64,000 bases of DNA from a virus. The notes beneath the pieces are model-generated. The model did not search any database. It was not told where the DNA came from and was given only the letters and a program-made list of their open reading frames with translations. The stretch lies in the IMG/VR virus record IMGVR_UViG_3300039452_000120. One strand, given 5' to 3'. Both the position numbers and the translations under genes were made by a program. Positions 20,614 through 36,050 of this stretch are shown here, piece after piece. Every line of letters begins with the position of its first letter. Positions within the stretch are counted from its first letter, which is position 1.

Positions 20614-21027
20614 ATGTGGATATTTTCTAAAAGAGGCTTTTATTCCATAGTGGAAGACAAGCTATTACCTAATAAGTGGCAAGTGAGAGCACGAACACGT
20701 GTAGACCTCGAAAACCTGATAAATGCTAATAATTTACAAGTAAAATTGATAGAAACACCCCACGCTGATTACCGTTTTCGTATAGTGGTTGACGCTACCC
20801 AGTTTGTATCAATAATGAGTGGCTTCGCAAAAGACGTCACATATACTAACTTCAAAGATGCTGTTAAGCATGTGAAGGGGCAGCAAGACAAGCTTGACAT
20901 ATTGCATCAGATTTGGGTGCTAATGTGGAAGCTACAAGCTAAACTTCATCCTTACAAGTTTAAGGGCAAGCGTAAAGCTAACAAATATGTAGGTGATAGC
21001 GGGAAGGAACATTATTCTGTATTTTAA
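20614..21027 (+). CDS. hypothetical protein
   Basis: 137-aa ORF; TAATG junction with the next gene. Confidence 0.55.
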   Translation: MWIFSKRGFYSIVEDKLLPNKWQVRARTRVDLENLINANNLQVKLIETPHADYRFRIVVDATQFVSIMSGFAKDVTYTNFKDAVKHVKGQQDKLDILHQIWVLMWKLQAKLHPYKFKGKRKANKYVGDSGKEHYSVF

Positions 21028-21953
21028 TGAAAGATATACGCAAGATACATCAAGACTTTGAACTTTTTAGTCGTGCTTTGATAGCTTCTAAGGACGTTGA
21101 TCCAGTGTATCCACTGGTACCTAAGTTGATAAAGTTGGGAAGGTATAATAAGCATTGGTTTGTATTTTGTTATGTAGCGTTTTATTCTTTGGAGAGTGCC
21201 ATAGTTATGTGTGATGAGATGCCTTCAATGAAGGATTGGTGGGCAGAAACTTTTCGGGAAATGCGCAACAGTGGTAAACTTCATAAGTTTGGTCATGAAC
21301 GAAGGGGAACAGCACGAAATGTATTAGTGCAAGAAATTATGTTCAAAGACATCATCCAGTTTATTGACACTTGGATGATAGAAGTCCTTTCCAAGGATAA
21401 TCAACACTTTCGCAACAGGTTGCAAACTAATTTGTCTAATCACGGTGGTTGGGCTTCATTTAAGATAGCCGAATTGTTTGAAAAGTCACTTGGCTATACT
21501 CAATTAGCCATTCCTGATTTAGGCTTAGAGGGACGCGACCCTAATTCTACAGATGGGCCAGTTGCAGGGTTGCGTTGGTTGTATGGCTTCGATAATCATT
21601 ATGACAAGGATTATTTTGAAGTTTGGAATAAGTTTGGAGCCAATTTAGCACGTGAGTGGGGTGTAGATATTGGAGAAGTAGAAACTTGTCTTTGTAAATT
21701 TCATAAATTGCGCACCGGGAAATATTATGTGGGACATGATATAGATGAGTTTTACGATTTAAGTCACGTTTTAGACCGTAAGACGTATGAGCAGACGATG
21801 AGTGATATCTTCGATGAGCGCACGTGGAAAGGTCGCACTGGCGTGAGAAAAAGTGATAAATCAGCATATTTAAAGACTGGGCGTATTCTGGGAAGTGAAT
21901 TTTCAGTTAATTTACCCAAAATTAATGTAACTGACATATTACTCTCCACGTAA
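21027..21953 (+). CDS. possible aGPT-Pplase / amino-acid:DNA transferase-like protein (second paralog-type)
   Basis: 308 aa, coupled (TAATG) to the next gene. DVDPVYPLV...WFVFCYVAFYSLESA recalls aGPT-Pplase clade signatures from memory only. Confidence 0.35.
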   Translation: MKDIRKIHQDFELFSRALIASKDVDPVYPLVPKLIKLGRYNKHWFVFCYVAFYSLESAIVMCDEMPSMKDWWAETFREMRNSGKLHKFGHERRGTARNVLVQEIMFKDIIQFIDTWMIEVLSKDNQHFRNRLQTNLSNHGGWASFKIAELFEKSLGYTQLAIPDLGLEGRDPNSTDGPVAGLRWLYGFDNHYDKDYFEVWNKFGANLAREWGVDIGEVETCLCKFHKLRTGKYYVGHDIDEFYDLSHVLDRKTYEQTMSDIFDERTWKGRTGVRKSDKSAYLKTGRILGSEFSVNLPKINVTDILLST

Positions 21954-22954
21954 TGTTATACGAATTTGTACATCCAAATAAGCGACTTGAAGATGTTTCC
22001 TTCTATAGTGCGTTGCCTGACGCCAATATTCATCTTCACGACCAACACTTGCAATCTTTTTTCAATTTTATGGCTGAACGTCAAAACGTTTGGTATAAGC
22101 GTAATATATTAAAGCAAAAAGCCCCTTGGACAAGTGATAAGCTGTTGGCGAATTACGCTTTTACCAATGTGTACCGCGAGTTAGACCGCTCATCTCAGTG
22201 GCTTATTCGTAATGTCATTAGTGATAAAAGCTTGGAGTTAAAAGACCTCATATTTCGTATATTTATATATAGGTATTTCAATAAGCCGGATGCATTTGAG
22301 GATGGTTATGTAGATTTACCAACTTGGGATAATTTTGATCCTGTAAAGCTTCATAAGCAGGTCATTAATTGCAGGAAGCATTACAATCCTTGGCACACAG
22401 CTTATATGAGCAATCTCGTGTGGGCAAAGAAACAACCATTTGAAGGCGAAATGTTCAAAGATCATGCTTACTGTATTCAGTTGTTTCCGCAATTTCGTAC
22501 AGTAAGTTGGTTTATATCAGAATTATTGACGAGCGGTAATAAGCCTGTAATCATAATGAAAAATCTCAACATGTTACCAAGCATATCGGGTTTTATGAGT
22601 CATGAATTGTGGCTTGATTATTGTTTATTACAGAAATATAACAAATATGACTTTGGTTGGGATGAAAATTCTTACACAAATGTTGGCCCCGGTGCAAGTC
22701 TTGGTATTAGATTGATATTTCCTTCCCTCTCACCGCAGGGACAGGAAGAAGGGATTTATGCACTCCGTGATGTATCAGAACACATGCTTTCAGACATGGA
22801 TTTTAAGTACGTGAAGTGGGACGGTAAAGAATATGTAGATTGTGAACACAATATTACACTGCATCAGATTGAGTTTGTACTTTGCGAATACTCGAAATAT
22901 TGGAAAATGCAAATAGGCATCGGTAAGCAGCGTAGTAAATTTGTTCCTCATTAA
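21953..22954 (+). CDS. aGPT-Pplase / amino-acid:DNA transferase-like DNA base hypermodification protein
   Basis: ERQNVWYKRNILKQKAPWTSDKLLANYAFTNVYRELDRSSQW matches the W-x-R...PWT-D...F-T-N-V-Y-R-E-L-D-R signature I associate with this family. Confidence 0.5.
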   Translation: MLYEFVHPNKRLEDVSFYSALPDANIHLHDQHLQSFFNFMAERQNVWYKRNILKQKAPWTSDKLLANYAFTNVYRELDRSSQWLIRNVISDKSLELKDLIFRIFIYRYFNKPDAFEDGYVDLPTWDNFDPVKLHKQVINCRKHYNPWHTAYMSNLVWAKKQPFEGEMFKDHAYCIQLFPQFRTVSWFISELLTSGNKPVIIMKNLNMLPSISGFMSHELWLDYCLLQKYNKYDFGWDENSYTNVGPGASLGIRLIFPSLSPQGQEEGIYALRDVSEHMLSDMDFKYVKWDGKEYVDCEHNITLHQIEFVLCEYSKYWKMQIGIGKQRSKFVPH

Positions 22955-23028
22955 ACATAGCTTGGCTGATTGTTTTCAGTTAGTAAGCATAATTTGAACA
23001 ATTGAAAAGACACAATTCAAGCATTACA

Positions 23029-24762
23029 ATGAATAATCCTATCTTACAGAGACGCCAATTACTGGCCAATAATGCACTCGCCAGCATCACGAAGGGTGAA
23101 GAAATACAGGTTTTTGAAGAAAAAGACTTGTCAGGTTTTACGGTATTTGAAGAACGCGCAGTTGACCAGATGATGGCTGACTTAATGAAAGCGGAAGCTA
23201 CTGGGGTGTTCGGGGGGCATAAGGTGACAACTGACGACATTCGTAAGGCACGGGAAGACGCTGGTAAGCTGGAAAAGAAAGTTGTAAAAGACAAGAATGG
23301 TGGCACACGTACTGTTTACGTGAAGGTGGTTGATCAAACCAAAGCTCATCATAAGATGACGCATGAAGAATTGATGGAGCACCACTCATCAGATGAGTTG
23401 CATAAAATAGCTGATAATTACAAGGTTAATCATGACAACATCCGGGAAAGTGTAGAAAAGAATGGTGCAGCTGATGATCCTTACCATAATCAAAAAGCTA
23501 TTAATAAGCGTGGGGATGTGGCCAGTTCTGAAGAAGCTTATATGCATATTAAACAAGCTGCTTACAAGAAAGAAAAATTGGAAGGTAAGGCAGGTGCTAA
23601 AGCTACTAAAGATGTCAATAAACCATATAAGCCCGGTGAAAAAGAAGAAGACATCAAGAAAGCTGAGTTTTCTGACAAAGAGCGTAAAAAGTTAGCTAAA
23701 GAAGGGGAAGCTGAAGAAAATGGTTCTTATCCGATTGAGAATGAGGAAGACTTGAAAAACGCTATTCAGGCTTATGGTCGCTCAAAAAACAAAGTTGCTA
23801 CTAAGCGGTGGATAAAGAAACGTGCCAAGGAACTGGATAAGGAAAGCTTGTTGCCTGATAGTTGGTCAGATAAGATTGAGAAAGCTATTGACGCTCTCAT
23901 AAAAGGTGACGATAGCTTAATAAAAGCCGAAGGGTTTGATGAGAACATGAAGCCACAGTTGGAGCGTAAGCAAATCATTGATAAAAATGGTCACTCTAAA
24001 ACTGTATATGTTCGTCATTGGGATACTGAGGAACACCACTTCGCTGTAGGTCATAAGGTTCACTTTACTCACAAGGACGGTTCTCAGGGTGAAGGTGATA
24101 TTACCGCTATGAAGTATCATCATAAGTACGATAAGTACGGTACAGCCACTATTCGCGACAAAGAAGGTAACGAACACAGCCGTTCGCTGCTTAAGGTGGA
24201 AAACCATAAAGACAATGATTTTCAATACGATACTTCCAAGGAAGATAAAGGTGAAACTAAGAAAGATGTTCCCGGTGGTTTTGATAAACCTGATGATTAT
24301 ATAACAGCTGAATTAGCATCAATGCAAGGTGCTGGTGGTGAAGAGAAGGGCAAAACATATCGTAAGCTTATAGCTTATATGGGTGAAACAGGTTTTTCTG
24401 ATGAAGAGATAATGAAAAAGCTTCATATCAGTAAAATTAATCTAAATTATTATAGAGAGCAACCTGCTGTTGTAAATGGAAAGTCAAAGCCAGAGAATAA
24501 GCCACAAGATGATAAATCTTCTGAAACCAAACTATCCGGGACTGAGGCTATAAACAAGAAGCAGAAAGACCTTAAAGCTGTTGAAGAAGCACTCAAAAAT
24601 CATGAGAGTGGTGTTAAAAAACTATCGGATGACGAGTTAGCCAGTCATAAGACGAAAAAGCAAACTTTAACCAAAATCATTGATCAGCTTAAGACTAAAA
24701 ACAATATTGAAAAGGCTCTTGAATCACTGCAAGGCACAGCCGAACCAACCATACAAAAGTAA
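23029..24762 (+). CDS. Lys/Glu-rich protein, probable internal virion protein
   Basis: Trimmed to ATG 23029; sits directly upstream of the portal; shares a roughly 50-aa module and xGxxxTVYV motifs with the 29251 polyvalent protein. Confidence 0.5.
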   Translation: MNNPILQRRQLLANNALASITKGEEIQVFEEKDLSGFTVFEERAVDQMMADLMKAEATGVFGGHKVTTDDIRKAREDAGKLEKKVVKDKNGGTRTVYVKVVDQTKAHHKMTHEELMEHHSSDELHKIADNYKVNHDNIRESVEKNGAADDPYHNQKAINKRGDVASSEEAYMHIKQAAYKKEKLEGKAGAKATKDVNKPYKPGEKEEDIKKAEFSDKERKKLAKEGEAEENGSYPIENEEDLKNAIQAYGRSKNKVATKRWIKKRAKELDKESLLPDSWSDKIEKAIDALIKGDDSLIKAEGFDENMKPQLERKQIIDKNGHSKTVYVRHWDTEEHHFAVGHKVHFTHKDGSQGEGDITAMKYHHKYDKYGTATIRDKEGNEHSRSLLKVENHKDNDFQYDTSKEDKGETKKDVPGGFDKPDDYITAELASMQGAGGEEKGKTYRKLIAYMGETGFSDEEIMKKLHISKINLNYYREQPAVVNGKSKPENKPQDDKSSETKLSGTEAINKKQKDLKAVEEALKNHESGVKKLSDDELASHKTKKQTLTKIIDQLKTKNNIEKALESLQGTAEPTIQK

Positions 24763-24769
24763 TTGATTC

Positions 24770-26470
24770 ATGTCTACAGAAATTATAAATAATTCTATAG
24801 GTAAGTCGTTGGATGACATTGATGTTGGCATAAAGCGACTTGAAGTAGAGCGAATGCTCACTATAGAAAAAGGCATGGCTTCTAATAACCCGGATGACAT
24901 AATGAAGTCCTATCAGGTGTTAGACCTTATTACCCGTAAGCATGAATCAAATCGAAAGTCTATTATTATAGACCCCAATGATTTTGGTTCATCTTTTGGC
25001 TATAAAGACAAGCCAATGTCTCTTAGCTATGATATGTTATACAATATGTCAAAAGTACCAATGGTTAATGCGGTAATTAAGACCCGTGTTAATCAGGTAG
25101 CCCGGTTCGCTGAACCTCAGCGTGATAAATACTCAATGGGGTTTGTTGTTCGTCGCAGACTTCGTCAAGGGGATTTAGACCGTCCTATGTCTAAAAAGGA
25201 TCAAAAAGAAGCCAACCGTATTGTAGATTTTATATTGAATTGCGGAAATGGTTTTTCCTTTGAAGGTGATCAGGATTTTGACACCTTTATTCGGAAGGTG
25301 ACGCTTGATAGCTTGCGTTATGATCAGATGTGCTTTGAGACTGTTTTTGATAAGAAAGGTGCACCGTATGCGTTTTATTCCACTGATGCTCAGACTATGC
25401 GTATAGCCGATACGTGGGATGATGATACGGTCATGACTAATAATCAGATTTGGGCTTACGGTCAAAAGAACAAGGTGTTGCCAATCAATTTGCGTAAAGC
25501 TATAAAGGGTTATTATCCGAATTACGTGCAAGTGATTGATGGGCAACCAATAAATGCTTTTTACCCATGGGAAATGTGCTTTGGTACACGCAACGCAAGC
25601 ACTTCAATCTATTCCAATGGGTACGGGTGCAGTGAGTTGGAAGAACTTGTATTAACAGTCACTTCTCTTATATGGGGTGAAGAATATAATCGTAGGTTCT
25701 TTAAACAAGGTTCTGTACCTAAAGGGCTTTTGCGTGTGTCAGGACAAATTAATGATACTAAGCTGGCTCAGTTTAAGCAGGAATGGAATGCTACAATGCG
25801 TGGGGTTTATAATGCTTGGAAAACACCAATACTCGAAGGGGAAAAAGTGGAGTGGGTAGACTTACAAAAGTCTAATAGCGACATGGAATATCATGCTTGG
25901 ATTGAGTTTCTTATTAAAGTAATATGTGCTGTATTTTGTATTGACCCCGCTGAAGTAAACTTTCCATTAGACGGGTCAGCTTCGTCGGGTGGTATAAAGT
26001 TTGGTGGTGATAATAAAGAACGCTTACAACAATCAAAAGACAAAGGGCTTTACCCTTTATTAAAGTTCATACAAATGAAGCTAAATCGTAGCATTGTTTG
26101 GCCAATGAACCCTGAATTTGAATTTGCTTTTGTTGGATTGAATACCATTGATGCTCAGACAGAGTTAGACATGGATATAAAGAAAGTTCAAAATTATGTA
26201 ACTGTAAATGAACTTCGTCGTGAAAAAGGAATGCCAGACATTGATGGGGGTGACATCATTCTCAATCCAGTTTACGCTTCACAATTGTTAGCTAAACAAC
26301 AGTTGGATCAAGCTAACGCAGCTAATGGCAAGCCTGATATGTTCGATATGACTGATTTACAGGGACAAGAAAACAATGAACGACCATCGGAACAAGATAA
26401 CATGATGGAAGAACCAATACAAAAAGCCTTTAACGAATACATAAACTCATTAAATAAGAAAGCAGCATGA
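24770..26470 (+). CDS. portal protein
   Basis: 566 aa; core EEYNRRFFKQGSVPKGLL...FKQEWNATMRGVYNAWKTPILEG...DMEYHAWIEFLIKVICAVFCIDPAEV is typical of portal proteins; acidic C-terminus. Confidence 0.8.
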   Translation: MSTEIINNSIGKSLDDIDVGIKRLEVERMLTIEKGMASNNPDDIMKSYQVLDLITRKHESNRKSIIIDPNDFGSSFGYKDKPMSLSYDMLYNMSKVPMVNAVIKTRVNQVARFAEPQRDKYSMGFVVRRRLRQGDLDRPMSKKDQKEANRIVDFILNCGNGFSFEGDQDFDTFIRKVTLDSLRYDQMCFETVFDKKGAPYAFYSTDAQTMRIADTWDDDTVMTNNQIWAYGQKNKVLPINLRKAIKGYYPNYVQVIDGQPINAFYPWEMCFGTRNASTSIYSNGYGCSELEELVLTVTSLIWGEEYNRRFFKQGSVPKGLLRVSGQINDTKLAQFKQEWNATMRGVYNAWKTPILEGEKVEWVDLQKSNSDMEYHAWIEFLIKVICAVFCIDPAEVNFPLDGSASSGGIKFGGDNKERLQQSKDKGLYPLLKFIQMKLNRSIVWPMNPEFEFAFVGLNTIDAQTELDMDIKKVQNYVTVNELRREKGMPDIDGGDIILNPVYASQLLAKQQLDQANAANGKPDMFDMTDLQGQENNERPSEQDNMMEEPIQKAFNEYINSLNKKAA

Positions 26471-26744: not shown

Positions 26745-27368
26745 ATGACAACTCAACCTTCTGTAATAAGTGCAATAGCGAAGTCCATTGGATTGGATTA
26801 CGCTATTTTTATGGCTTTCATAATGACGGAAAGCAGTGGACAAGGATTTGATCCAGCTACGGGTAAAATCATAATCCGTTTTGAAGCGAGTTGGTTTTTG
26901 AGGAAGTTAGACTTATTCCATATTCCGTATCAGGCAACACCTATATATACAGATGGTACTAAGACGAAAATAGCAAGTTATATCATAACAGCTGCTGAGA
27001 TAACTTTCACTACAAGTACAAAAGATCAAGCAGCAAACTGGGCTTCTTTTAATAACGCTTGGAAAATTAGTCACACTTGTGCTATGCTTTCTACAAGTTG
27101 GGGAGCAATGCAAGTAATGGGCTTTAATTACGCTGCTTGTGGTTTTAAGACGGTGGATGATATGGTTACCGCTATGCATACTGAAGTTGGTCAAATTACA
27201 GCTGCTGCTTCTTTCATACAACACACACCATCCTTACTGAATGCTTTAAAGGCTCGTAATTATCAGCGTTCTGCGTATTTCTACAATGGTGAAAACTATA
27301 GAGAAAACAATTACGATGTTACATTACAAAAATGGGATAACTACTATTCAAAACAGAACGTAGCATGA
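26745..27368 (+). CDS. N-acetylmuramidase-family peptidoglycan hydrolase (endolysin)
   Basis: MTESSGQGF...IIRFE...STSWGAMQVMGFNYAACGF...NGENYRENNYDVTLQ follows the DUF3380/muramidase pattern. Confidence 0.75.
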   Translation: MTTQPSVISAIAKSIGLDYAIFMAFIMTESSGQGFDPATGKIIIRFEASWFLRKLDLFHIPYQATPIYTDGTKTKIASYIITAAEITFTTSTKDQAANWASFNNAWKISHTCAMLSTSWGAMQVMGFNYAACGFKTVDDMVTAMHTEVGQITAAASFIQHTPSLLNALKARNYQRSAYFYNGENYRENNYDVTLQKWDNYYSKQNVA

Positions 27369-28126: not shown

Positions 28127-28365
28127 TGTTTGTGAATGAGGACAATATTGGTCAGATTACGAAGGCTATCGTAGCGAAGGCTTTAAGGAATATGGAAAAA
28201 CCAAAGGATGAGCCACGTTATAAGACCATTATTCAATATGAACGAGATTTTAAAATTGTATATGCCACTGGATTAAGTTCTGTATTGAAAGTGGCTTTTG
28301 ATAAATATAAGAAAGAATTGGTTAGCGATGTTATTAACGCCAGACAAAATACAGGAAATACTTGA
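28126..28365 (+). CDS. hypothetical protein
   Basis: 79-aa ORF, TAATG coupled. Confidence 0.4.
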   Translation: MFVNEDNIGQITKAIVAKALRNMEKPKDEPRYKTIIQYERDFKIVYATGLSSVLKVAFDKYKKELVSDVINARQNTGNT

Positions 28366-29251
28366 TATATTTGACAATTTTCATGTATTGTTTATTGCTA
28401 ACCAAGTTGGTACTGATATATTAACTCCAAATGATTTAGCAGTTCTTGCTAAACACGGTGTAGACATTTCCAATATTGTAGATGTGGAAGGGAAAGTTAC
28501 AGATGCCTTTAAATTTGGCTTATTAGCTGAAGCTTTGGGAAATAAAGCTGCTAAAAAACTGGATTACAAAAGCTTTTTGAAATTTGTAGAATCAGGGAAG
28601 TTCTTACCATTGACTGATGCAGAGCAGAATGCTTTGAGGATGCTTAAATTTCAAGCCTATAATGATATAAAAGGTCTGAGTAATAGGATTAGCCAAGATT
28701 TTGTACAAATCTTGATAGATAGTGAAAAAACTCAACGGGTAAAATATGAGAAAACTATACAAGATGAAGCTGCTCAGGTTGTACTTATGCGCGAAACTCA
28801 GAATGACCTTGCTTCACGACTTGGACACAAAACGCAAGATTGGACAAGGGATTTTGACCGTATCGCTGACTACGTGCTACACTCAGCGTTTGACTATGGA
28901 AAGGCAGAACAAATCTTCAAGACATATGGTGAGAATGCGGAAGTCTATAAATCTGTCTATAAGGGAGCGTGCAAGCATTGTATAGCAGCATATTTAACTG
29001 ATGGATTAGGTAGTGAACCTAAGATATTTAAGCTAAAGGAATTGTTAGCTAATGGCAGTAATATTGGGCGAAAGGTAGCTGATTGGTTGCCTGTAATTGG
29101 CCCACATCACCCTTGGTGTCGTTGCGAACTTTGTGGTAAACCTGAAAATAGGCTTTGGAATCAACAAGCACAAGATTTTACAACTATTGTACGAAATAAT
29201 TATGGTGTTAAACGCAATAGCAAGGTCAAAGTAACCATAACCAAAGAGTAA
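28328..29251 (+). CDS. MuF / SPP1 gp7-like head morphogenesis protein
   Basis: C-terminal GPHHPWCRCEL motif typical of Mu F-like minor head proteins; trimmed to ATG 28328. Confidence 0.6.
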   Translation: MLLTPDKIQEILDIFDNFHVLFIANQVGTDILTPNDLAVLAKHGVDISNIVDVEGKVTDAFKFGLLAEALGNKAAKKLDYKSFLKFVESGKFLPLTDAEQNALRMLKFQAYNDIKGLSNRISQDFVQILIDSEKTQRVKYEKTIQDEAAQVVLMRETQNDLASRLGHKTQDWTRDFDRIADYVLHSAFDYGKAEQIFKTYGENAEVYKSVYKGACKHCIAAYLTDGLGSEPKIFKLKELLANGSNIGRKVADWLPVIGPHHPWCRCELCGKPENRLWNQQAQDFTTIVRNNYGVKRNSKVKVTITKE

Positions 29252-32200
29252 TGGAGAAGAAATACAAATTTTATGACAAAAAGAACCTTGGCTATAAACG
29301 CCACGAGTTGCCTCAGATTGATGAGGACAGCATAGATGAGTTCTTGATATATTTTGCAGGTAAGGTGAAGGTGTCTAAGCTTAAGATGGCTTTAGATCGA
29401 ATTAAGCCGACTCAAGATGAAATCAATGAAGATAAGGTAAAAGGCATGATAGATAGTGGGTATGATTGGAAAGGTCGTATCTACATTGTATCATCAGATA
29501 ATTATCTGCTTGATGGTCATCATGGTTACGCAATGGGTCTTGAAGAAGACCCGGACGCTGAAGTAACGGTATATCGTATCAATATACCAATGAAGCAATT
29601 AATAGCACGTTCTAATAAGCTAAAAATCACTCATAAGGTTGATGTAAATGATGATTTAGTGAAGTCTGAAATGTTGTGCGATTTGATAGAGAAAGGTCAC
29701 ATGATTGTTACTGATTTAGCTTTAGAAGAACAGCTTGAATATGTATATGAAGAATTTGGTTTTGAAAAAGCTATACCAACTCACCTTGTAAAAAAAGTAA
29801 TAGTCAATAAGGAAGGTCATACACAAACTGTATATATTGACCCTAACAAAGACAATAAAATTTACGATTTTCATAAGCATCCTTACACTGGGACTCATCC
29901 AGTTTTCGCTGAGAATGTTACTAATGCTGTTAAACAAGTATTGGAAAGTAAGGGTGAAAAACTTAAGTTGGTTACTAAGCCTTATGATAGTAAGGTGGCT
30001 TATATAACAGCTAAACAGGATGGAAGCCCAAATGAGGCAGCTGTTGTTGAGTGGTATAAGACTAAGAATTTCAATAAAACAGGGGTTATTGGTATAAAGC
30101 ATGGTGGAAAAATACACGAAAAGAAGATAGCTAACCACGAAGATGAATTAGCAGCTGAAAAAGAATATCTTGAAAACATCGACATAGCACGCAAGAAAGG
30201 ACAGGCACTGGCAGATAAAATCGAAGCCACGACGAGTGGAGACGGGGGATTGCAAAATTTTGGTGGTTTTAGTGTCGGAGATCACGTAACCTTCGAGGAT
30301 GCAGGCGAGAAGATAAGCGGTAAGATAACAGGGCTTAAATATCACGAAAAGTATGATAAATTTGGTACTGCTATTGTTACTACAGAAGACGGCAAGAAGT
30401 ATTCACGCAGTTTAAAGAAAGTGCAATTTACTGCAGTTCCTGTTAAAGGTGTTGAAGCAGCAGCACAGAAGCTTGCTGAGGCTATGAAAGGAAATCAGAA
30501 TGCTAAGAAAGATACGACAACTGTATCTAAAATTACAGACAACTTAAAGTTTATTCAGTCATTAGGTGGTAGCAATGGTGCTCAACTGTTGGAGAGTGAA
30601 GACGGCAAGCATAAATATGTTGTAAAAACTCTTAAGAATGAAGTAGCACAAAATGAGGCGAACGCTAATTGGATATACAAATCATTTGGGATAGCTGTCC
30701 CAGATACTATTCATGTGGGTGATAAACTTTTAACAACTTATATACCCAACACAGTAAATCTAAAACAATACCTTGCTTCAGCAACCATAATTGATACTGG
30801 TAAGATTTACAAGCAGATAAAAGATGGTTTTGTTGCTGATGCTTTGTTGGGTAATTGGGATGTTGTTGGATTGGATGAGGATAATATGGTAGTTGATCCA
30901 GCTACTAAAAAGTTGTACCGAATAGATAATGGTGGTGCATTGTTCTATCGTGCTCAGGGGGCTGCTAAAGGGGATGAGTTTAAAGATACAGTGATTGAAC
31001 TGGATACCTTGCGCGACCCAAAGAAAAATCCACAAACTGCTAAATTTTTCAAGGGTGTAACTGATGCTGACATAGCTGCTCAGGTTAAGCACATCTTAGA
31101 AAATAAAGCCATCTACCTGCAATATGCCGCGATATTAGGTGGGGATAAAGAGCAAAAGATGCTCAAAAGGCTGTCTTATCTTGAAACTAAATACAATACT
31201 GATATTAAGCCGTCTGCTAAAGCTGAAGGTTATCATAAGAACGGTTTATATAAGAAAACAGGTATCGAAAAAATAGACAATTTGTACGATAAAATTGACG
31301 AAGCTATGGCTTTAACTGAAGCTGATTATGCATTCATTGAATCTGATACAATGTCGTCTGACCGCAGTGGTGCTAAGAACTTAGCTGGTGTTAAGGATGG
31401 TGCTTCTGATATGTCTACTTGGGTAAAAAAGGCTTTACAAGCAGGTGCAACTCCATTAGAAATGTACTGTATTCAAATGTATACTGGTGGTTCATATAAA
31501 AGTATGAATGATGCATTGGTGAACGTGACTAATGTACAAACTGCTAATATCAACCCGGATAAGCTAATCTTTAAGAAACAGCATCAAAATACTAACAAAG
31601 TAACACATGATGTTTTGGTGCAAGCTAATGTTACTAAGCATCCTAAAGACGTGTTTTATCAAACGTTGTTAGATGCTGCCAAGACGGTTAATCATCATAA
31701 AGAAGATAAGCAATATAATATGGCCAAAATTACTGCTTTGAAGGCACAATTGGTGAGCTTAGACGGTATATTAAAGGATGTTGAAAAGAATAAAACTAAA
31801 TATAATCCTTCGGACGTACATATGATGCAGTATTATTTCCACGCTTCTAAGAATGTATTAGATGCTAAGGAAATGCAAAAAGAAGCACCAAAGGTTGCTC
31901 AATATGAACTTACAGGTGACATGCATAAAAAACATAATGCATTTGTTGAAAAATTGACGTCTAAAAATAAGAAAGAGAACAAGCCGTCTGAGTCGTTAAA
32001 AATTAACACTAAATTGGATGCATTAGTGTCAAACGATGATAAAAGGTGGTTAGCGAGGGTTAAGCTGCTTACCAGTGGATTAGCTAAGTTGGAGAAACAT
32101 GATGATTTTCACTATAAAGGCAATGTGTATCGTAAGATTACAGCTTGGGAAGAAAATGAAGGCGATATACAAGCATTCAAGGACATTCATCATGAGCATG

Positions 32201-32427
32201 CTAATGTAATATGGCAGCGTAATAACAGTACCTCTAAGAAATCAAGCACTTGGAGTGGTGATATAAAGTTTGAGATTAAACAACATTTAGGTGTAGACGT
32301 GCAAGCTATTTCTCATCATGACAGTGAGGAAGAAGTGATGTTGAAGCCGTTTACCTGCATCAAAGTTAACAAAGTTAGTACTACTGCTGGTGGCAGCACT
32401 TTCTATGAAGTAGAACAATTAGGATAA
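29251..32427 (+). CDS. polyvalent protein: ParB-like domain + kinase-like domain + ADP-ribosyltransferase
   Basis: ParB-like IKPTQDEI...LLDGHHGY. Kinase-like GSNGAQLL..KYVVK..LLGNWDVVGLDEDN..YRIDNGG. ART R-S-E pattern YTGGSYKSMNDAL / NVYRKI / NNSTSKK / SEEEVMLKP. Confidence 0.65.
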   Translation: MEKKYKFYDKKNLGYKRHELPQIDEDSIDEFLIYFAGKVKVSKLKMALDRIKPTQDEINEDKVKGMIDSGYDWKGRIYIVSSDNYLLDGHHGYAMGLEEDPDAEVTVYRINIPMKQLIARSNKLKITHKVDVNDDLVKSEMLCDLIEKGHMIVTDLALEEQLEYVYEEFGFEKAIPTHLVKKVIVNKEGHTQTVYIDPNKDNKIYDFHKHPYTGTHPVFAENVTNAVKQVLESKGEKLKLVTKPYDSKVAYITAKQDGSPNEAAVVEWYKTKNFNKTGVIGIKHGGKIHEKKIANHEDELAAEKEYLENIDIARKKGQALADKIEATTSGDGGLQNFGGFSVGDHVTFEDAGEKISGKITGLKYHEKYDKFGTAIVTTEDGKKYSRSLKKVQFTAVPVKGVEAAAQKLAEAMKGNQNAKKDTTTVSKITDNLKFIQSLGGSNGAQLLESEDGKHKYVVKTLKNEVAQNEANANWIYKSFGIAVPDTIHVGDKLLTTYIPNTVNLKQYLASATIIDTGKIYKQIKDGFVADALLGNWDVVGLDEDNMVVDPATKKLYRIDNGGALFYRAQGAAKGDEFKDTVIELDTLRDPKKNPQTAKFFKGVTDADIAAQVKHILENKAIYLQYAAILGGDKEQKMLKRLSYLETKYNTDIKPSAKAEGYHKNGLYKKTGIEKIDNLYDKIDEAMALTEADYAFIESDTMSSDRSGAKNLAGVKDGASDMSTWVKKALQAGATPLEMYCIQMYTGGSYKSMNDALVNVTNVQTANINPDKLIFKKQHQNTNKVTHDVLVQANVTKHPKDVFYQTLLDAAKTVNHHKEDKQYNMAKITALKAQLVSLDGILKDVEKNKTKYNPSDVHMMQYYFHASKNVLDAKEMQKEAPKVAQYELTGDMHKKHNAFVEKLTSKNKKENKPSESLKINTKLDALVSNDDKRWLARVKLLTSGLAKLEKHDDFHYKGNVYRKITAWEENEGDIQAFKDIHHEHANVIWQRNNSTSKKSSTWSGDIKFEIKQHLGVDVQAISHHDSEEEVMLKPFTCIKVNKVSTTAGGSTFYEVEQLG

Positions 32428-32741
32428 TGAACATATTAACACTAAAATACCGGGACAAAGACTATGAAATTGTAGAGGACTTTCCAGACCAGATGATGTT
32501 ACTTCGTCAGATAATAGGTGACCTGCCTACTGATGAGCAGCTTAAGGCTGTTAAACATTATATTGGTGAGGGTGAAGGTGAAATGCGTGATATGATATCA
32601 GGCGCATTCTTAGCTGGGAACTTGTCTGGGGATGAGGATGACTTTCAGTCTAATATGCGTTTTACTCTATTAGAGGCACAATTCCCATTAGGTGAGCAGG
32701 TAACTGTATTGCGAGGTGCAGCAGGTTCAAACCAACTCTAA
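32427..32741 (+). CDS. hypothetical acidic protein
   Basis: 104-aa ORF, TAATG coupled. Confidence 0.5.
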   Translation: MNILTLKYRDKDYEIVEDFPDQMMLLRQIIGDLPTDEQLKAVKHYIGEGEGEMRDMISGAFLAGNLSGDEDDFQSNMRFTLLEAQFPLGEQVTVLRGAAGSNQL

Positions 32742-32788: not shown

Positions 32789-34477
32789 ATGGCAAAAAAC
32801 AATAAAAAAGACCGTTTCGTGTTTTGGATGCCCTGTGAAATTGAGAAGGGTGGCAAGAGCGATAAACCTGAAGAACGAGTGATGCGCCTTAAGGGGATTG
32901 CGTCAACCAATGATCGTGATTCAGATGGGGAAGTGTTAGACCCAGATGGTTTTGATTTATCTTTCTTTAAAAGTAGTGGAATGGTAAATTGGCATCATCA
33001 GGCTAAAGACCGTCCTATGGCTAATATCGGTGAGCCTGAAAAAGCTGAAATCCAACCCAAAGGATTATATGTAGAGTGCTTGCTCTACCCCGGCTCACCT
33101 TTAGCAAACGAAGTATTTGATTTAGCGGAATTGCTGGAGAAAAACTCCAAAACGCGTAGATTGGGCTTTTCTATTGAAGGAAAAGTCTTGGAACGTGACC
33201 CGTTGGATGATAATCACATTACTAAGTCTAAAATCACTGGGTTGGCCGTTACTCATATTCCTAAAAATCCTGCTACACTTTGTGAAATAATGAAAGGGGA
33301 GCGTAACGGCTTCGATATGGAGTGGGATGAAGAGAACATTTGGAAGGCTGAAGATGAGGACGATGGCACAGAAAATGGTAGTGGTAATGGGATTGAAGAA
33401 GGAGAAAAACCTACTATTGTAAAAGACGATGTTGGTAATGGGGACATGGGTAACCAAGAAATGAATGGGGAAGAAGAACTGGAAGCTGCTGAGAAGGCAT
33501 TAGATACTACCACAGGAAAACCTTTGATAAAGGAATCACTTGATCCACAGCTTAAACCAACTTGCTTAAGTAAGGGAGAGGTATTTGATCGGATATTTGC
33601 TCAGTTTCCAACTATAAGTATTCCAAACTCCAAACAAGTTTACACAATTATTGAAAAAGTCGCAGAAGACATGAATACAAAAACTCAAATTACTGCCGAA
33701 GCCATTCAAAAGGCTTTCGACATTTTGGGACTGCCTGGAGCAGGCTCAAATGACATCAACAAAGCCGAAGGTGGTTTCACTTCTACTGATGCACCTTCTG
33801 TAGCTGGTATGGCTGCCGCCAATGGTTCTCGTGAAGCCTTTTTTAAGGACATGGGAGACGGTAACTATAAGAAAATGTACAAAGGTGAAGCGGAAGACGG
33901 CTCAGAAGATGAGGAAGCTGACGACAAAGTGTATGTTAAAAAGGGTGATGAATATGAAGTAAAACCCGGTGAAGGTACTGGCTTGGAAAAAGCTCAAACC
34001 AATGAAATCGGTGCTTCAAATCCAACTGTTGAGATTGCTAAAGCATTCGGGGACGTTGTTACTGGATTGGCTAAGCAAAATGCTGAAATGTTTAAAGCCA
34101 TCGGTACAGTACTTCAAGGTGTTACTGAAACACAAAATCGTATCCTTGAACGTTTGGAAGGCATTGAATCTCAACCGGCAGCTGGTGTAGGACGTAAATC
34201 AGTAAGCAATGTGCGTGAGTTAGTGCGTCAGGGCTTCAACAAAGGTGATCAAAATGAGCTGGGCGAAGGCAATGAACAACGCGGTAATTCAAAGCAGTTA
34301 TCGTTGACTCAGAACAGACGAGAGATCATAAACTTGTTCAATAAACTGTCGTTCAACAAAGGTGAATTAGACCCATTCTATGGTCAGGCAGTTGTTCGCT
34401 ACGAGTCATCAGGTCAAATTCTTGAAGACGTTCGCCGGGCGATAAAGGACAGTGAAGGTATTACTTTCGTATCGTAA
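32789..34477 (+). CDS. HK97-family prohead protease fused to an acidic scaffold-like region
   Basis: N-terminal DRDSDGEVLDPDGF...VNWHHQ...LGFSIEGKV pattern of S78/U35 proteases; C-terminal 350 aa or so is D/E/G-rich and helical-looking. Confidence 0.65.
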   Translation: MAKNNKKDRFVFWMPCEIEKGGKSDKPEERVMRLKGIASTNDRDSDGEVLDPDGFDLSFFKSSGMVNWHHQAKDRPMANIGEPEKAEIQPKGLYVECLLYPGSPLANEVFDLAELLEKNSKTRRLGFSIEGKVLERDPLDDNHITKSKITGLAVTHIPKNPATLCEIMKGERNGFDMEWDEENIWKAEDEDDGTENGSGNGIEEGEKPTIVKDDVGNGDMGNQEMNGEEELEAAEKALDTTTGKPLIKESLDPQLKPTCLSKGEVFDRIFAQFPTISIPNSKQVYTIIEKVAEDMNTKTQITAEAIQKAFDILGLPGAGSNDINKAEGGFTSTDAPSVAGMAAANGSREAFFKDMGDGNYKKMYKGEAEDGSEDEEADDKVYVKKGDEYEVKPGEGTGLEKAQTNEIGASNPTVEIAKAFGDVVTGLAKQNAEMFKAIGTVLQGVTETQNRILERLEGIESQPAAGVGRKSVSNVRELVRQGFNKGDQNELGEGNEQRGNSKQLSLTQNRREIINLFNKLSFNKGELDPFYGQAVVRYESSGQILEDVRRAIKDSEGITFVS

Positions 34478-34529: not shown

Positions 34530-36050
34530 ATGAATTTAGGTATTAACATCGACGCGTACAGTAGCATGAAGGACAACTTCGCGTTCACTGGCGAGGCTAA
34601 TACTTCACCTGAAGCCCTGCAGGACATTGCAAAGGCACTCGAAGCAGGAAGTCTTAGCGGGCAAGCTACTATGAACAGAACAGACCTGTCTGGTAGCCCA
34701 TTGAAAACAGAAAGTCTGGACTCAACGCTTCGTGTTACCACTTTCCAAGAAAGTGAAATCGTAGTGTGGAAACGTATACCGAAAAGTGCTGCTTACAGTA
34801 CCAATGAGGAATACAACCAAATGACCGACTACGGTAGTGACGTTGGTGGGTTCTACGGTGAAGGTGAAACTCCAAATGAGGAAGATAGCACCTATGTACG
34901 TAGGCAACAGTTAGTGAAATTCCTTGGTGTGAAAAAGGGCGTGACTCATGTGATGACCCTGACTCAGACCATGATTGGTAACGCCATTGCTCAGGAAGCT
35001 AAGAATGGCACCATGTGGATTTTACGTAAGCTTAACCGCTCAATTGTGGATGCCGATAGCCGTATTATACCGAATGCCTTTAACGGTGTATATGCTCAGC
35101 ATATTCGCCCAGATGGTAGTAATTTCAATGGTGGTTTAGGTGAGTATGATTACCTGAGCTCAGAAATTGTAGTTGACTTGCGTGGTTCTTACCTGAAAGA
35201 GGAACACATGGAAACGGCACAGGAAGGGATGATTGAAAACCACGGTATCGGTAACGAGTTCTTTGGTGCTCCAAAAATCTTCTCTGACTTTGCGAAAGGC
35301 TTCTACGGTAAAAAGTATATCAACCCGAATACTGAGCAGACATCTGCCGGCATTATGGGTCAAAGGGTTGTAGGACACGACACTCAATTTGGTCGTGTTA
35401 ACTTTACACCTGACCTGTTCATGAACAAACGTAAACCGAAATTTTATAATGACGGTGGTGTTGGTGGTAGTGGTGCTCCGAATGCTATCGTACCAGATGG
35501 TACTACACCAATTAATGCTTTAACAGGCATTACAAATTCTCTTTGGGCTTCCAGTGATGCTGGTAACTACGTATATGGTATTACCGCTGTAAATTATCTT
35601 GGTGAATCACCAATGACTGTACTTTCTAATACTGCTACTACTATTTCTGCTGGTGGCGCAGTTGACTTGAAATTTACAGCTTCTACTTCTGGCCCAGCTG
35701 CTACAGGTTTTGTTATCTGGAGAGCAGAAAAAGGTATGGCTTATAATGTTGCTAAATTCTACAAACTGTTCGAGGTTTCTGCTCAGGAATTAGCAAACGG
35801 TTACAATGGTGCTGCTGCTTCTACAGTACGTGACACTAACATGTATATGCCAAATACTAACCAGGCATTCTTGATCCAGAACACTTCAGACGTTTGGACT
35901 TTCCGCCAATTGCTTCCGATGATGAAGATGGATTTAGCGATCACTGGCCCAGTGTTCAACTTCTTAGTGTTGCTTTATGGTACACCAATTCTGTTCCAGC
36001 AACGTAAGATGGTGAGGTTCATCAATGTTGGTTTATTTATCGACAATTAA
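34530..36050 (+). CDS. major capsid protein
   Basis: 506 aa, immediately after the protease/scaffold, followed by the strongest terminator in the window. Called from position and size. Confidence 0.65.
   Translation: MNLGINIDAYSSMKDNFAFTGEANTSPEALQDIAKALEAGSLSGQATMNRTDLSGSPLKTESLDSTLRVTTFQESEIVVWKRIPKSAAYSTNEEYNQMTDYGSDVGGFYGEGETPNEEDSTYVRRQQLVKFLGVKKGVTHVMTLTQTMIGNAIAQEAKNGTMWILRKLNRSIVDADSRIIPNAFNGVYAQHIRPDGSNFNGGLGEYDYLSSEIVVDLRGSYLKEEHMETAQEGMIENHGIGNEFFGAPKIFSDFAKGFYGKKYINPNTEQTSAGIMGQRVVGHDTQFGRVNFTPDLFMNKRKPKFYNDGGVGGSGAPNAIVPDGTTPINALTGITNSLWASSDAGNYVYGITAVNYLGESPMTVLSNTATTISAGGAVDLKFTASTSGPAATGFVIWRAEKGMAYNVAKFYKLFEVSAQELANGYNGAAASTVRDTNMYMPNTNQAFLIQNTSDVWTFRQLLPMMKMDLAITGPVFNFLVLLYGTPILFQQRKMVRFINVGLFIDN

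Follow-up and report, generated by a model that had tools for sequence, protein, structure and literature searches.

A phage head-module protein with predicted ParB/sulfiredoxin-like, HopAG1-type kinase-fold and ADP-ribosyltransferase domains

Between the portal gene and the prohead protease and capsid genes of a virus deposited in IMG/VR (record IMGVR_UViG_3300039452_000120) lies an uninterrupted open reading frame (ORF) that, by the ORF list and its translation, encodes a protein of 1058 amino acids. This flanking places the gene, called here the polyvalent gene, in the head-morphogenesis module of the 64,000-nucleotide stretch of DNA that was analysed (the window; Table 1). A first-pass annotation of the window had put the gene in a head module, directly downstream of and coupled to a gene whose product contains HHPWCRCEL, and both points were borne out, the ATG of the polyvalent gene overlapping the TAA of the upstream 317-residue gene by one base. 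It had also divided the protein into ParB-like, kinase-like and ADP-ribosyltransferase (ART) portions; every motif quoted is present in its place, and the three are separable domains of the kinds named. These motif sets are far beyond chance: homologues of every region are numerous, and in the alignments it is the motif residues that form the invariant columns. The G+C content is even along the gene (0.36–0.38, against 0.38 for the window). A megablast search of phage genomes with the gene gave no match, and scans of the whole protein and of its segments against Pfam, PHROGs and NCBIfam yielded, apart from a PHROG without an assigned function, matches to the ART half only.

The gene occupies a slot whose contents vary among related phages. 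Two related metagenomic phage contigs, L019 (106 kb) and L020, keep the order portal, 307-residue MuF-like gene, polyvalent gene, protease and capsid. In L019 the cargo is an 801-residue protein with the ParB-like and middle regions and neither kinase nor ART, whereas in L020 it is a 779-residue protein in which the same regions are joined to a different ART, of the ADPrib_exo_Tox type. In other proteins the N-terminal module has a type IB topoisomerase, a ClpP protease or a cytidylyltransferase as its neighbour. An exchange of cargo while the locus stays fixed is the hallmark of polyvalent proteins (Iyer et al. 2017, PMC5512222), and the earlier reading of the gene as one of these is strengthened by the different cargo domains found in the same slot. 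The protein shares with those described a large multidomain build, a late or virion context, the combination of ART, ParB/sulfiredoxin and kinase folds, and shuffled cargo (PMC5512222). With its multiple effector domains, virion gene context and variable locus architecture, it belongs to this known kind. The literature already contains virion-embedded polyvalent proteins bearing ART, ParB and kinase domains (since 2017; PMC5512222) and head-packaged ARTs, the ART being the commonest polyvalent enzyme (PMC9503650). The domain order of the window protein and the helical module inserted in its ART were not found in the polyvalent-protein papers of the Aravind group.

Table 1. Positions of the features discussed, numbered from the first nucleotide of the window
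Feature	Coordinates	Strand	Evidence or remark
Polyvalent protein gene	29251-32427	+	ORF and translation; every region with homologues
ParB/sulfiredoxin-like domain, residues 10-125	29278-29625	+	AlphaFold2 model, BFVD Foldseek, profile matches
Poorly modelled middle region, residues ~150-339	29701-30267	+	common to P0002 and P0003
Small Tudor/SH3-like beta-barrel, residues ~340-393	30268-30429	+	AlphaFold2 strands at residues 345-387, pLDDT ~86
HopAG1-type atypical protein-kinase-like domain, residues 422-650	30514-31200	+	AlphaFold2, Foldseek, alignment, BLASTP to HopAG1
ART N-terminal helix motif YTGGSYKSMNDAL, residues 744-756	31480-31518	+	conserved in ART-bearing sequences
Helical module inserted in ART (~165 residues), residues ~760-930	31528-32040	+	alignment against compact ARTs
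ART catalytic core, residues 936-1058 (R961, S993-T-S995, E1026-x-E1028)	32056-32424	+	Pfam and alignment
ADDT (amino acid:DNA transferase) and 5-hmdU DNA kinase genes, adjacent	21027-22954	+	PF18724 E 3e-7; PF18723 E 2e-47
586-residue ORF	23002-24762	+	just 5' of portal, at the position expected for the terminase large subunit
Portal protein	24770-26470	+	Pfam Phage_portal E 1.4e-23; PHROG 12
N-acetylmuramidase	26745-27368	+	PF11860 E 3e-39
Candidate minor head protein (317 residues), MuF-like by motif (CKHC ... HHPWCRC)	28298-29251	+	motif and position
104-residue ORF	32427-32741	+	begins with the final base of the polyvalent stop codon (1-nt overlap)
Prohead maturation protease, probably with scaffold	32789-34477	+	PHROG 1028 E 6.6e-45
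Probable major capsid protein	34530-36050	+	weak SU10_MCP match E 0.004; position as in relatives

AlphaFold2 modelled the kinase-like domain with a predicted local distance difference test (pLDDT) score of 95.3 and a predicted template modelling score of 0.91. A Foldseek search of the PDB with this model returned 124 matches at E ≤ 1e-3, and all of the best 50 of these 124 belong to the kinase superfamily. The top structures listed were PRPK/Bud32 (E 1.7e-6), CtkA, RIOK1, PI3K-alpha, COQ8A and DNA-PK, with E values up to 1e-4, and after these leading atypical kinases come many eukaryotic protein kinases among the matches listed, with template modelling (TM) scores of about 0.5. The likeness to PRPK/Bud32, RIO, the HipA-like CtkA and PI3K, at a similar TM score, lies in a compact kinase fold with a reduced C-lobe; identity to them is 11–17%, and the window family has a catalytic loop and a post-DFG motif of its own.

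A homology search with the domain found 40 relatives, among which the glycine loop (G440/G443), K459, E469, D537/N545 and D559 are invariant or at least 90% conserved, with R567 also among the conserved positions. The motifs of the window protein are LGGSNGA (residues 438–444), KYVVK (K459), FVADALLGNWDVVGLDEDN (residues 527–545) and RIDNGG (residues 557–562), encoded within nucleotides 30562–30936, and the family alignment gives LGGSxGA, FVADALLGNWDVVGLxxDN (containing D537 and N545), RIDNGG (D559) and RYRAQG. In the model N545 stands just before a strand at residues 546–549 and D559 just after one at residues 554–557, the usual sites of the catalytic-loop Asn and the DFG Asp in kinase structures. 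The model thus confirms, at the level of the fold, a bilobal kinase domain of an atypical sort with a complete set of catalytic residues. The first-pass comparison with PI3K/PI4K-type kinases stood as far as the fold is concerned, PI3K being among the nearest structures and the catalytic set complete, and failed for membership of that family: the window protein gave no match to PI3_PI4_kinase (PF00454), a model reached by 2 of the 40 relatives at E ~0.2. No model in Pfam, PHROG or NCBIfam matches the kinase-like domain of the window protein.

Weak sequence matches of family members went to HipA_C, APH (E 0.0011), RIO1, PI3_PI4_kinase and choline kinase (E 0.077), all of one superfamily. Those to choline kinase, APH, HipA_C and RIO, together with an atypical loop (GNWDVVGLxxDN) that has no HRD His and sets its Asp and Asn eight residues apart, and with the family-specific invariant motif R-I-D-N-G-G...R-A-Q-G, would suit an APH- or choline-kinase-like enzyme acting on small molecules, an enzyme of different chemistry (SelO performs AMPylation, SidJ glutamylation) or a pseudokinase that regulates the ART. 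The pseudokinase version sits poorly with the invariance of the full ATP- and Mg-binding set (Gly loop, Lys, Glu, Asn and Asp), and true protein kinases, namely CtkA and many eukaryotic enzymes, are among the top structural neighbours; we regard a role other than that of a protein kinase as improbable.

A 'distinctive' kinase was reported from polyvalent proteins in 2017, in Verrucomicrobia-Chlamydia and in Bacteroidetes (pro)phages, with some stand-alone versions; its whole C-terminal subdomain is missing, and His, Gln and Glu are conserved (PMC5512222). Compared by description only, the window kinase is no obvious fit, with about 90 residues of helices after the DFG-equivalent and no HRD His. 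The two may still be one family, given their shared distribution in Verrucomicrobia, Chlamydia and Bacteroidetes phages.

A closer relationship was found outside phages. By BLASTP, residues 278–444 of HopAG1, a type III effector of Pseudomonas syringae, align with the window kinase-like domain at 35% identity over 173 residues (E 1e-24), the identity of the Pseudomonas protein as HopAG1 being taken from cluster names. The sequences concerned are L172 4158-6314 (Pseudomonas cerasi) and the proteins P0080-P0094. HopAG1 has been described as having an ART of the R-S-ExE type at its N-terminus and NUDIX at its C-terminus (PMC9963460). We found no mention of a kinase-like domain in it in a literature, incompletely covered, that describes only those two, and the alignment indicates that its central region is of the same kinase-fold family as the phage domain, giving the order ART-kinase-NUDIX. 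The two proteins thus have in common the kinase-like domain and an ART of the R-S-ExE type, and the NUDIX domain recurs in relatives of the window protein (P0050, P0052 and P0060). HopAG1 differs in its type III secretion into plant cells, in its domain order, in having neither a ParB-like domain nor the helical insert, and in its DFG-equivalent, IDLGG rather than IDNGG.

The domain is abundant, occurring in at least 569 viral stretches by a pattern scan of IMG/VR. ORF sizes and partners were counted in the best 80 loci, which hold 81 kinase-domain ORFs, 77 of them at least 700 residues long. Bacterial carriers are found in Verrucomicrobiota, Chlamydiae, Planctomycetota, Endozoicomonas, Saccharibacteria, actinomycetes and the Pseudomonas syringae group, and their proteins are mostly large. 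Endozoicomonas loci (L132-L137, L139, L140 and L150) hold multiple copies, mostly of 1000–1400 residues, with at least four loci in E. atrinae (L133, L137, L139 and L150); they may represent an expanded effector family in these animal symbionts. On a 1.27-Mb bacterial contig (L014 4273-8749), the stand-alone kinase-like gene P0008 lies among genes for an LHH toxin-domain protein, a MazG-like protein and a protein of metallo-beta-lactamase fold resembling Anti-Pycsar Apyc1, which looks like a conflict-system or prophage-remnant neighbourhood.

The C-terminal part of the protein (residues ~735–1058) is an ART split by an inserted helical module. Pfam ART (PF01129) covers residues 937–1048 at 24.6 bits, above the gathering cutoff of 22.3 (27.2 bits on the subsequence), and the region also shows weak matches to HopU1 and XopAI. 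The catalytic motifs are VYRKI (R961), STS (residues 993–995) and SEEEVML (E1026/E1028), and with the N-terminal helix motif they span nucleotides 31480–32343. We aligned 17 post-kinase regions, and the 15 that bear an ART conserve Y/F-T-G-x-x-Y-x-x-[MIV]-N, R961, S-T-S and E-x-E; P0062 and P0069 have neither ART nor N-terminal helix motif. The earlier assignment to the R-S-E class is upheld by this conservation and by the Pfam score, and the residues predict an intact R-S-ExE active site. ARTs of the R-S-ExE type (C2, iota, VIP2 and the ecto-ARTs) are usually arginine-specific.

The long insert seen in the first pass is present, and its size needed correction. From the first ART motif to the Arg there are 204 residues in the window protein and about 40 in five compact relatives, so the true insert is about 165 residues rather than about 190. 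The window protein and nine others have the extra segment, which is recorded for P0001, P0050-54, P0056-58 and P0060 and is missing from the compact ARTs. Its conserved core (residues 799–886) reads AAKTVNHH...YN here and AAKTVNxHAxDGxYN in the family, K, H and N being the invariant positions. It also stands behind the kinase in proteins that have no ART (P0062, P0069, 17 of the 81 viral ORFs and, in a genomic set of 81 ORFs, 13); by its sequence distribution it is an independent module. It is probably a helical bundle, the sole match of its profile in the PDB being a de novo helical bundle.

The combination of kinase and ART had been singled out as the unusual part of the protein, and this does not hold. 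A search with the ART region (1.84 billion representatives) found 30 relatives, about 20 of which have the kinase upstream of the ART. Among 68 distinct viral post-kinase regions, Pfam recognized ADPrib_exo_Tox in 19, ART in 4 and ART-PolyVal in 1, so that an ART of some type lies downstream of the kinase in about 24 of 68, roughly one third; SNF2 helicase (3), LPD38 (1) and NUDIX (1) account for other matches. Pseudomonas phage Dolphis gp117 (1222 residues) and Escherichia phage ECML-606-1 gp47 (2253 residues), annotated merely as 'ADP-ribosyltransferase' or 'hypothetical protein', have the same kinase-like domain followed by a C-terminal ART, which differs from that of the window protein in being of the ADPrib_exo_Tox type without the insert, and both proteins are without a ParB-like domain. 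P0050, P0052 and P0060 are NUDIX-kinase-ART proteins, and P0052 and P0060 carry a ParB-like domain as well. HopAG1 provides a further instance of the pairing. We found no description of this kinase family or of a phage kinase-ART pairing in a literature search that was itself incomplete.

Such recurrence raises the possibility that kinase and ART, with NUDIX in the relatives, form a coupled NAD+/ADP-ribose module in which the kinase would act on ADP-ribose, on NAD+ or on the ADP-ribosylated target, making the mark irreversible or composite, and NUDIX would perform a third step in the relatives and in HopAG1. The kinase-then-ART order in the ART homologues, Dolphis gp117 and ECML-606-1 gp47 is in keeping with this, as are the standing of ART as by far the commonest identifiable post-kinase partner and the occurrence of all three domains in the NUDIX-bearing relatives and, in reversed order, in HopAG1. 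However, about two thirds of the sampled kinase-bearing viral ORFs have no recognisable ART, some carrying SNF2 helicase or LPD38 instead, and stand-alone kinases exist. Given that ART is the commonest polyvalent enzyme anyway (PMC9503650), co-occurrence may simply reflect abundance, and the nearest structures are protein, lipid and ATPase-type kinases, not nucleotide kinases. We consider the coupled module possible yet doubtful.

At the N-terminus, the AlphaFold2 model of residues 1–400 is confident only for residues 10–125 (pLDDT 84–94) and some later beta elements. Foldseek against BFVD, which holds predicted viral structures, gave many matches named ParB/Sulfiredoxin (E 2e-9 to 1e-7, target TM 0.75–0.81), names that are automatic UniProt annotations of homologues. 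The best PDB profile matches, the free serine kinase SerK (5x0j, E 0.035) and 1vk1, are both of the ParB/sulfiredoxin fold, and the alignment covers the K-P-x-Q and D-G-H-H-R motifs. Pfam ParBc_2 was matched by 8 of 14 family members, all below the curated threshold (best E 6.6e-4), and the window protein's own N-terminal domain had no Pfam match. Foldseek against the PDB with the 400-residue model listed no ParB among the best 50 matches, which were dominated by weak eS4 and Tudor hits. The motifs are IKPTQ (residues 51–55) and LLDGHH (residues 86–91), within nucleotides 29401–29523, and an alignment of 14 sequences shows R17, P21, Q22, Q55, K62, D88, G89 and H91 to be invariant. The likeness to ParBc_2 and SerK is marginal at these E values, and the window family differs from both and from 1vk1 by an extra invariant N-terminal R-x-x-M-P-Q-I element. 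The ParB/sulfiredoxin-like domain proposed in the first pass is nonetheless supported at fold level by the structural matches and by weak but consistent profile matches to ParBc_2 and SerK. Such a domain would probably be a nucleoside triphosphate-dependent phosphotransferase, an NTPase or a nickase.

Beyond it, BLASTP extends the coverage by P0002 and P0003 over residues 1–392. The middle region has no Pfam or PHROG match, and its pLDDT is mostly below 50 at residues 132–214 and 70–83 at about 215–300. The small beta-barrel that follows, a segment duplicated in P0003, is the likely source of the Foldseek matches to the ERCC6L2 Tudor domain (target TM 0.82) and eS4, in a search that gave no aligned query ranges.

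Virion links exist within the kinase family, in which P0062 is a fusion of Phage_Mu_F to the kinase domain. The head module that contains the stand-alone kinase P0014 also has, as neighbours of that gene, Phage_Mu_F and a 1776-residue phage protein (L016 1-3266) in which Phage_portal_3 is fused to an ADP-ribosyltransferase and a type IB topoisomerase. T4 Alt, whose ART is of the R-S-E clade, is a late product that is taken into the head and injected along with the DNA (PMC5512222). It differs from the window protein in having no detectable sequence similarity to it, in being a single-enzyme protein and in coming from a phage without a MuF-type partner.

We think it probable that the window protein is a polyvalent phage effector, produced late alongside the capsid proteins, which would be carried in the head and pass with the DNA into the next host cell. 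This view accords with what was seen of the protein, namely its folds, its conserved catalytic residues, its place in the head module and its shuffled cargo, and with the MuF and portal fusions of family members. Packaging would probably proceed via the minor head protein whose gene lies immediately upstream, on the side of the portal. In the new host the effector would most likely modify proteins covalently at an early stage, through ADP-ribosylation and phosphorylation, leading to takeover of host functions or disarming of defences as with T4 Alt and T7 Gp0.7.

Several observations weigh against this proposal. Packaging, ejection, the enzyme activities and their targets are all argued by analogy with T4 Alt, P1 DdrB and T7 Gp0.7 (PMC5512222, PMC9503650). 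ART and insert were assigned from sequence alone, and 50,697 deposited phage genomes, searched by tblastn with the ART region, yielded no relative, not even T4 Alt. In the kinase-like domain the Asp-Asn spacing of eight residues, against the usual five, in a loop lacking the HRD His means that the chemistry may not be standard phosphotransfer. In the ParB-like domain the Arg of the canonical (D)GxxR or DGHHR motif is a Gly (DGHHG, G92), the Arg being kept in only some relatives, so the canonical ParB/sulfiredoxin active site is incomplete in the window protein. The upstream 317-residue protein found no Pfam match at E ≤ 5, Phage_Mu_F (PF04233) included; hhalign against SPP1 gp7 gave a probability of 0.4%, and PHROG 758 'head morphogenesis' was reached at E 0.009 only.

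The earlier description of that upstream protein as MuF-like accordingly survived in part. It bears GPHHPWCRCEL near its C-terminus, an H...C-x-C-R-C-type motif (HHPWCRCEL here, HMHMAKDDCNCRCAL in SPP1 gp7, which ends CNCRC), and lies near the portal; the Pfam and hhalign comparisons did not bear out the family, and a PHROG scan of five homologues was likewise negative for MuF. In Bacillus phage SP-10 homologues adjoin the portal gene; in the Bacillus phage Nachito, which has one annotated 'minor capsid protein', they precede the portal gene by two genes. We use 'MuF-like' as a plausible label from motif and position, family membership not being demonstrated.

A rival reading is that the protein is not ejected and would be either a late cytoplasmic enzyme or an internal, scaffold-like head component acting in the producing cell, for instance in superinfection exclusion or late host physiology, its place in the head module reflecting co-expression only. 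No packaging signal or MuF domain was demonstrable, and stand-alone ParB-like proteins of about 150 residues are common in large phages at assorted positions, sometimes between portal and prohead protease. Against it stand the conservation in relatives of the slot between minor head protein and protease, the family members fused to Phage_Mu_F or adjacent to a portal-effector fusion, and the precedents of T4 Alt and P1 DdrB (PMC5512222), and we judge retention in the producing cell unlikely.

The 586-residue ORF had no significant Pfam, PHROG or NCBIfam match. The portal gene is followed by a 91-residue ORF, the N-acetylmuramidase, a DUF6808 protein, a 79-residue ORF, the 317-residue gene and the polyvalent gene. 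The N-acetylmuramidase thus lies inside the head module, between the portal and MuF-like genes, as it does in the relative L019, and may be a virion-borne cell-wall enzyme. The adjacent ADDT and 5-hmdU kinase genes suggest that the phage probably hypermodifies thymidine in its own DNA; L019 carries both genes as well, together with one for a PRA-PH protein.

Chryseobacterium phage MA9V-3 is the closest deposited relative for the 317-residue gene. Its 1459-residue protein, two small ORFs 3' of the MuF-like gene, was considered as a counterpart of the window protein and rejected, since it shares none of these domains. On the 3' side of this protein, which has no recognisable domains, MA9V-3 has a stand-alone NUDIX gene (L009 14001-14708) that echoes the NUDIX fusions in P0050, P0052 and P0060. 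L019 and L020 lack the 104-residue ORF that lies downstream of the polyvalent gene; no homologue of it turned up in deposited phages, and a PDB search with it gave nothing relevant. By eye it had seemed a truncated N-terminal half of an ART, an idea dropped when its score against the ART hidden Markov model proved no better than those of 1000 shuffles; the product could serve the toxic domains as a chaperone or inhibit them.

In the literature searched, three elements are unreported, namely the link to HopAG1, an abundant domain without a library model and a mobile helical module within an ART. The window protein is a well-bounded multi-effector whose three enzymatic domains can be expressed and assayed separately. 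Its kinase-fold domain, abundant and yet without a model in Pfam, PHROG or NCBIfam, is a new one for annotators to name. It raises the question of whether the domain is a protein kinase and whether it cooperates with ADP-ribosylation, which is tractable in ECML-606-1, Dolphis and HopAG1. If kinase and ART do form a coupled module, it would be shared by phage-ejected polyvalent proteins and a type III effector of a plant pathogen, and would represent a host-modification chemistry not yet described.

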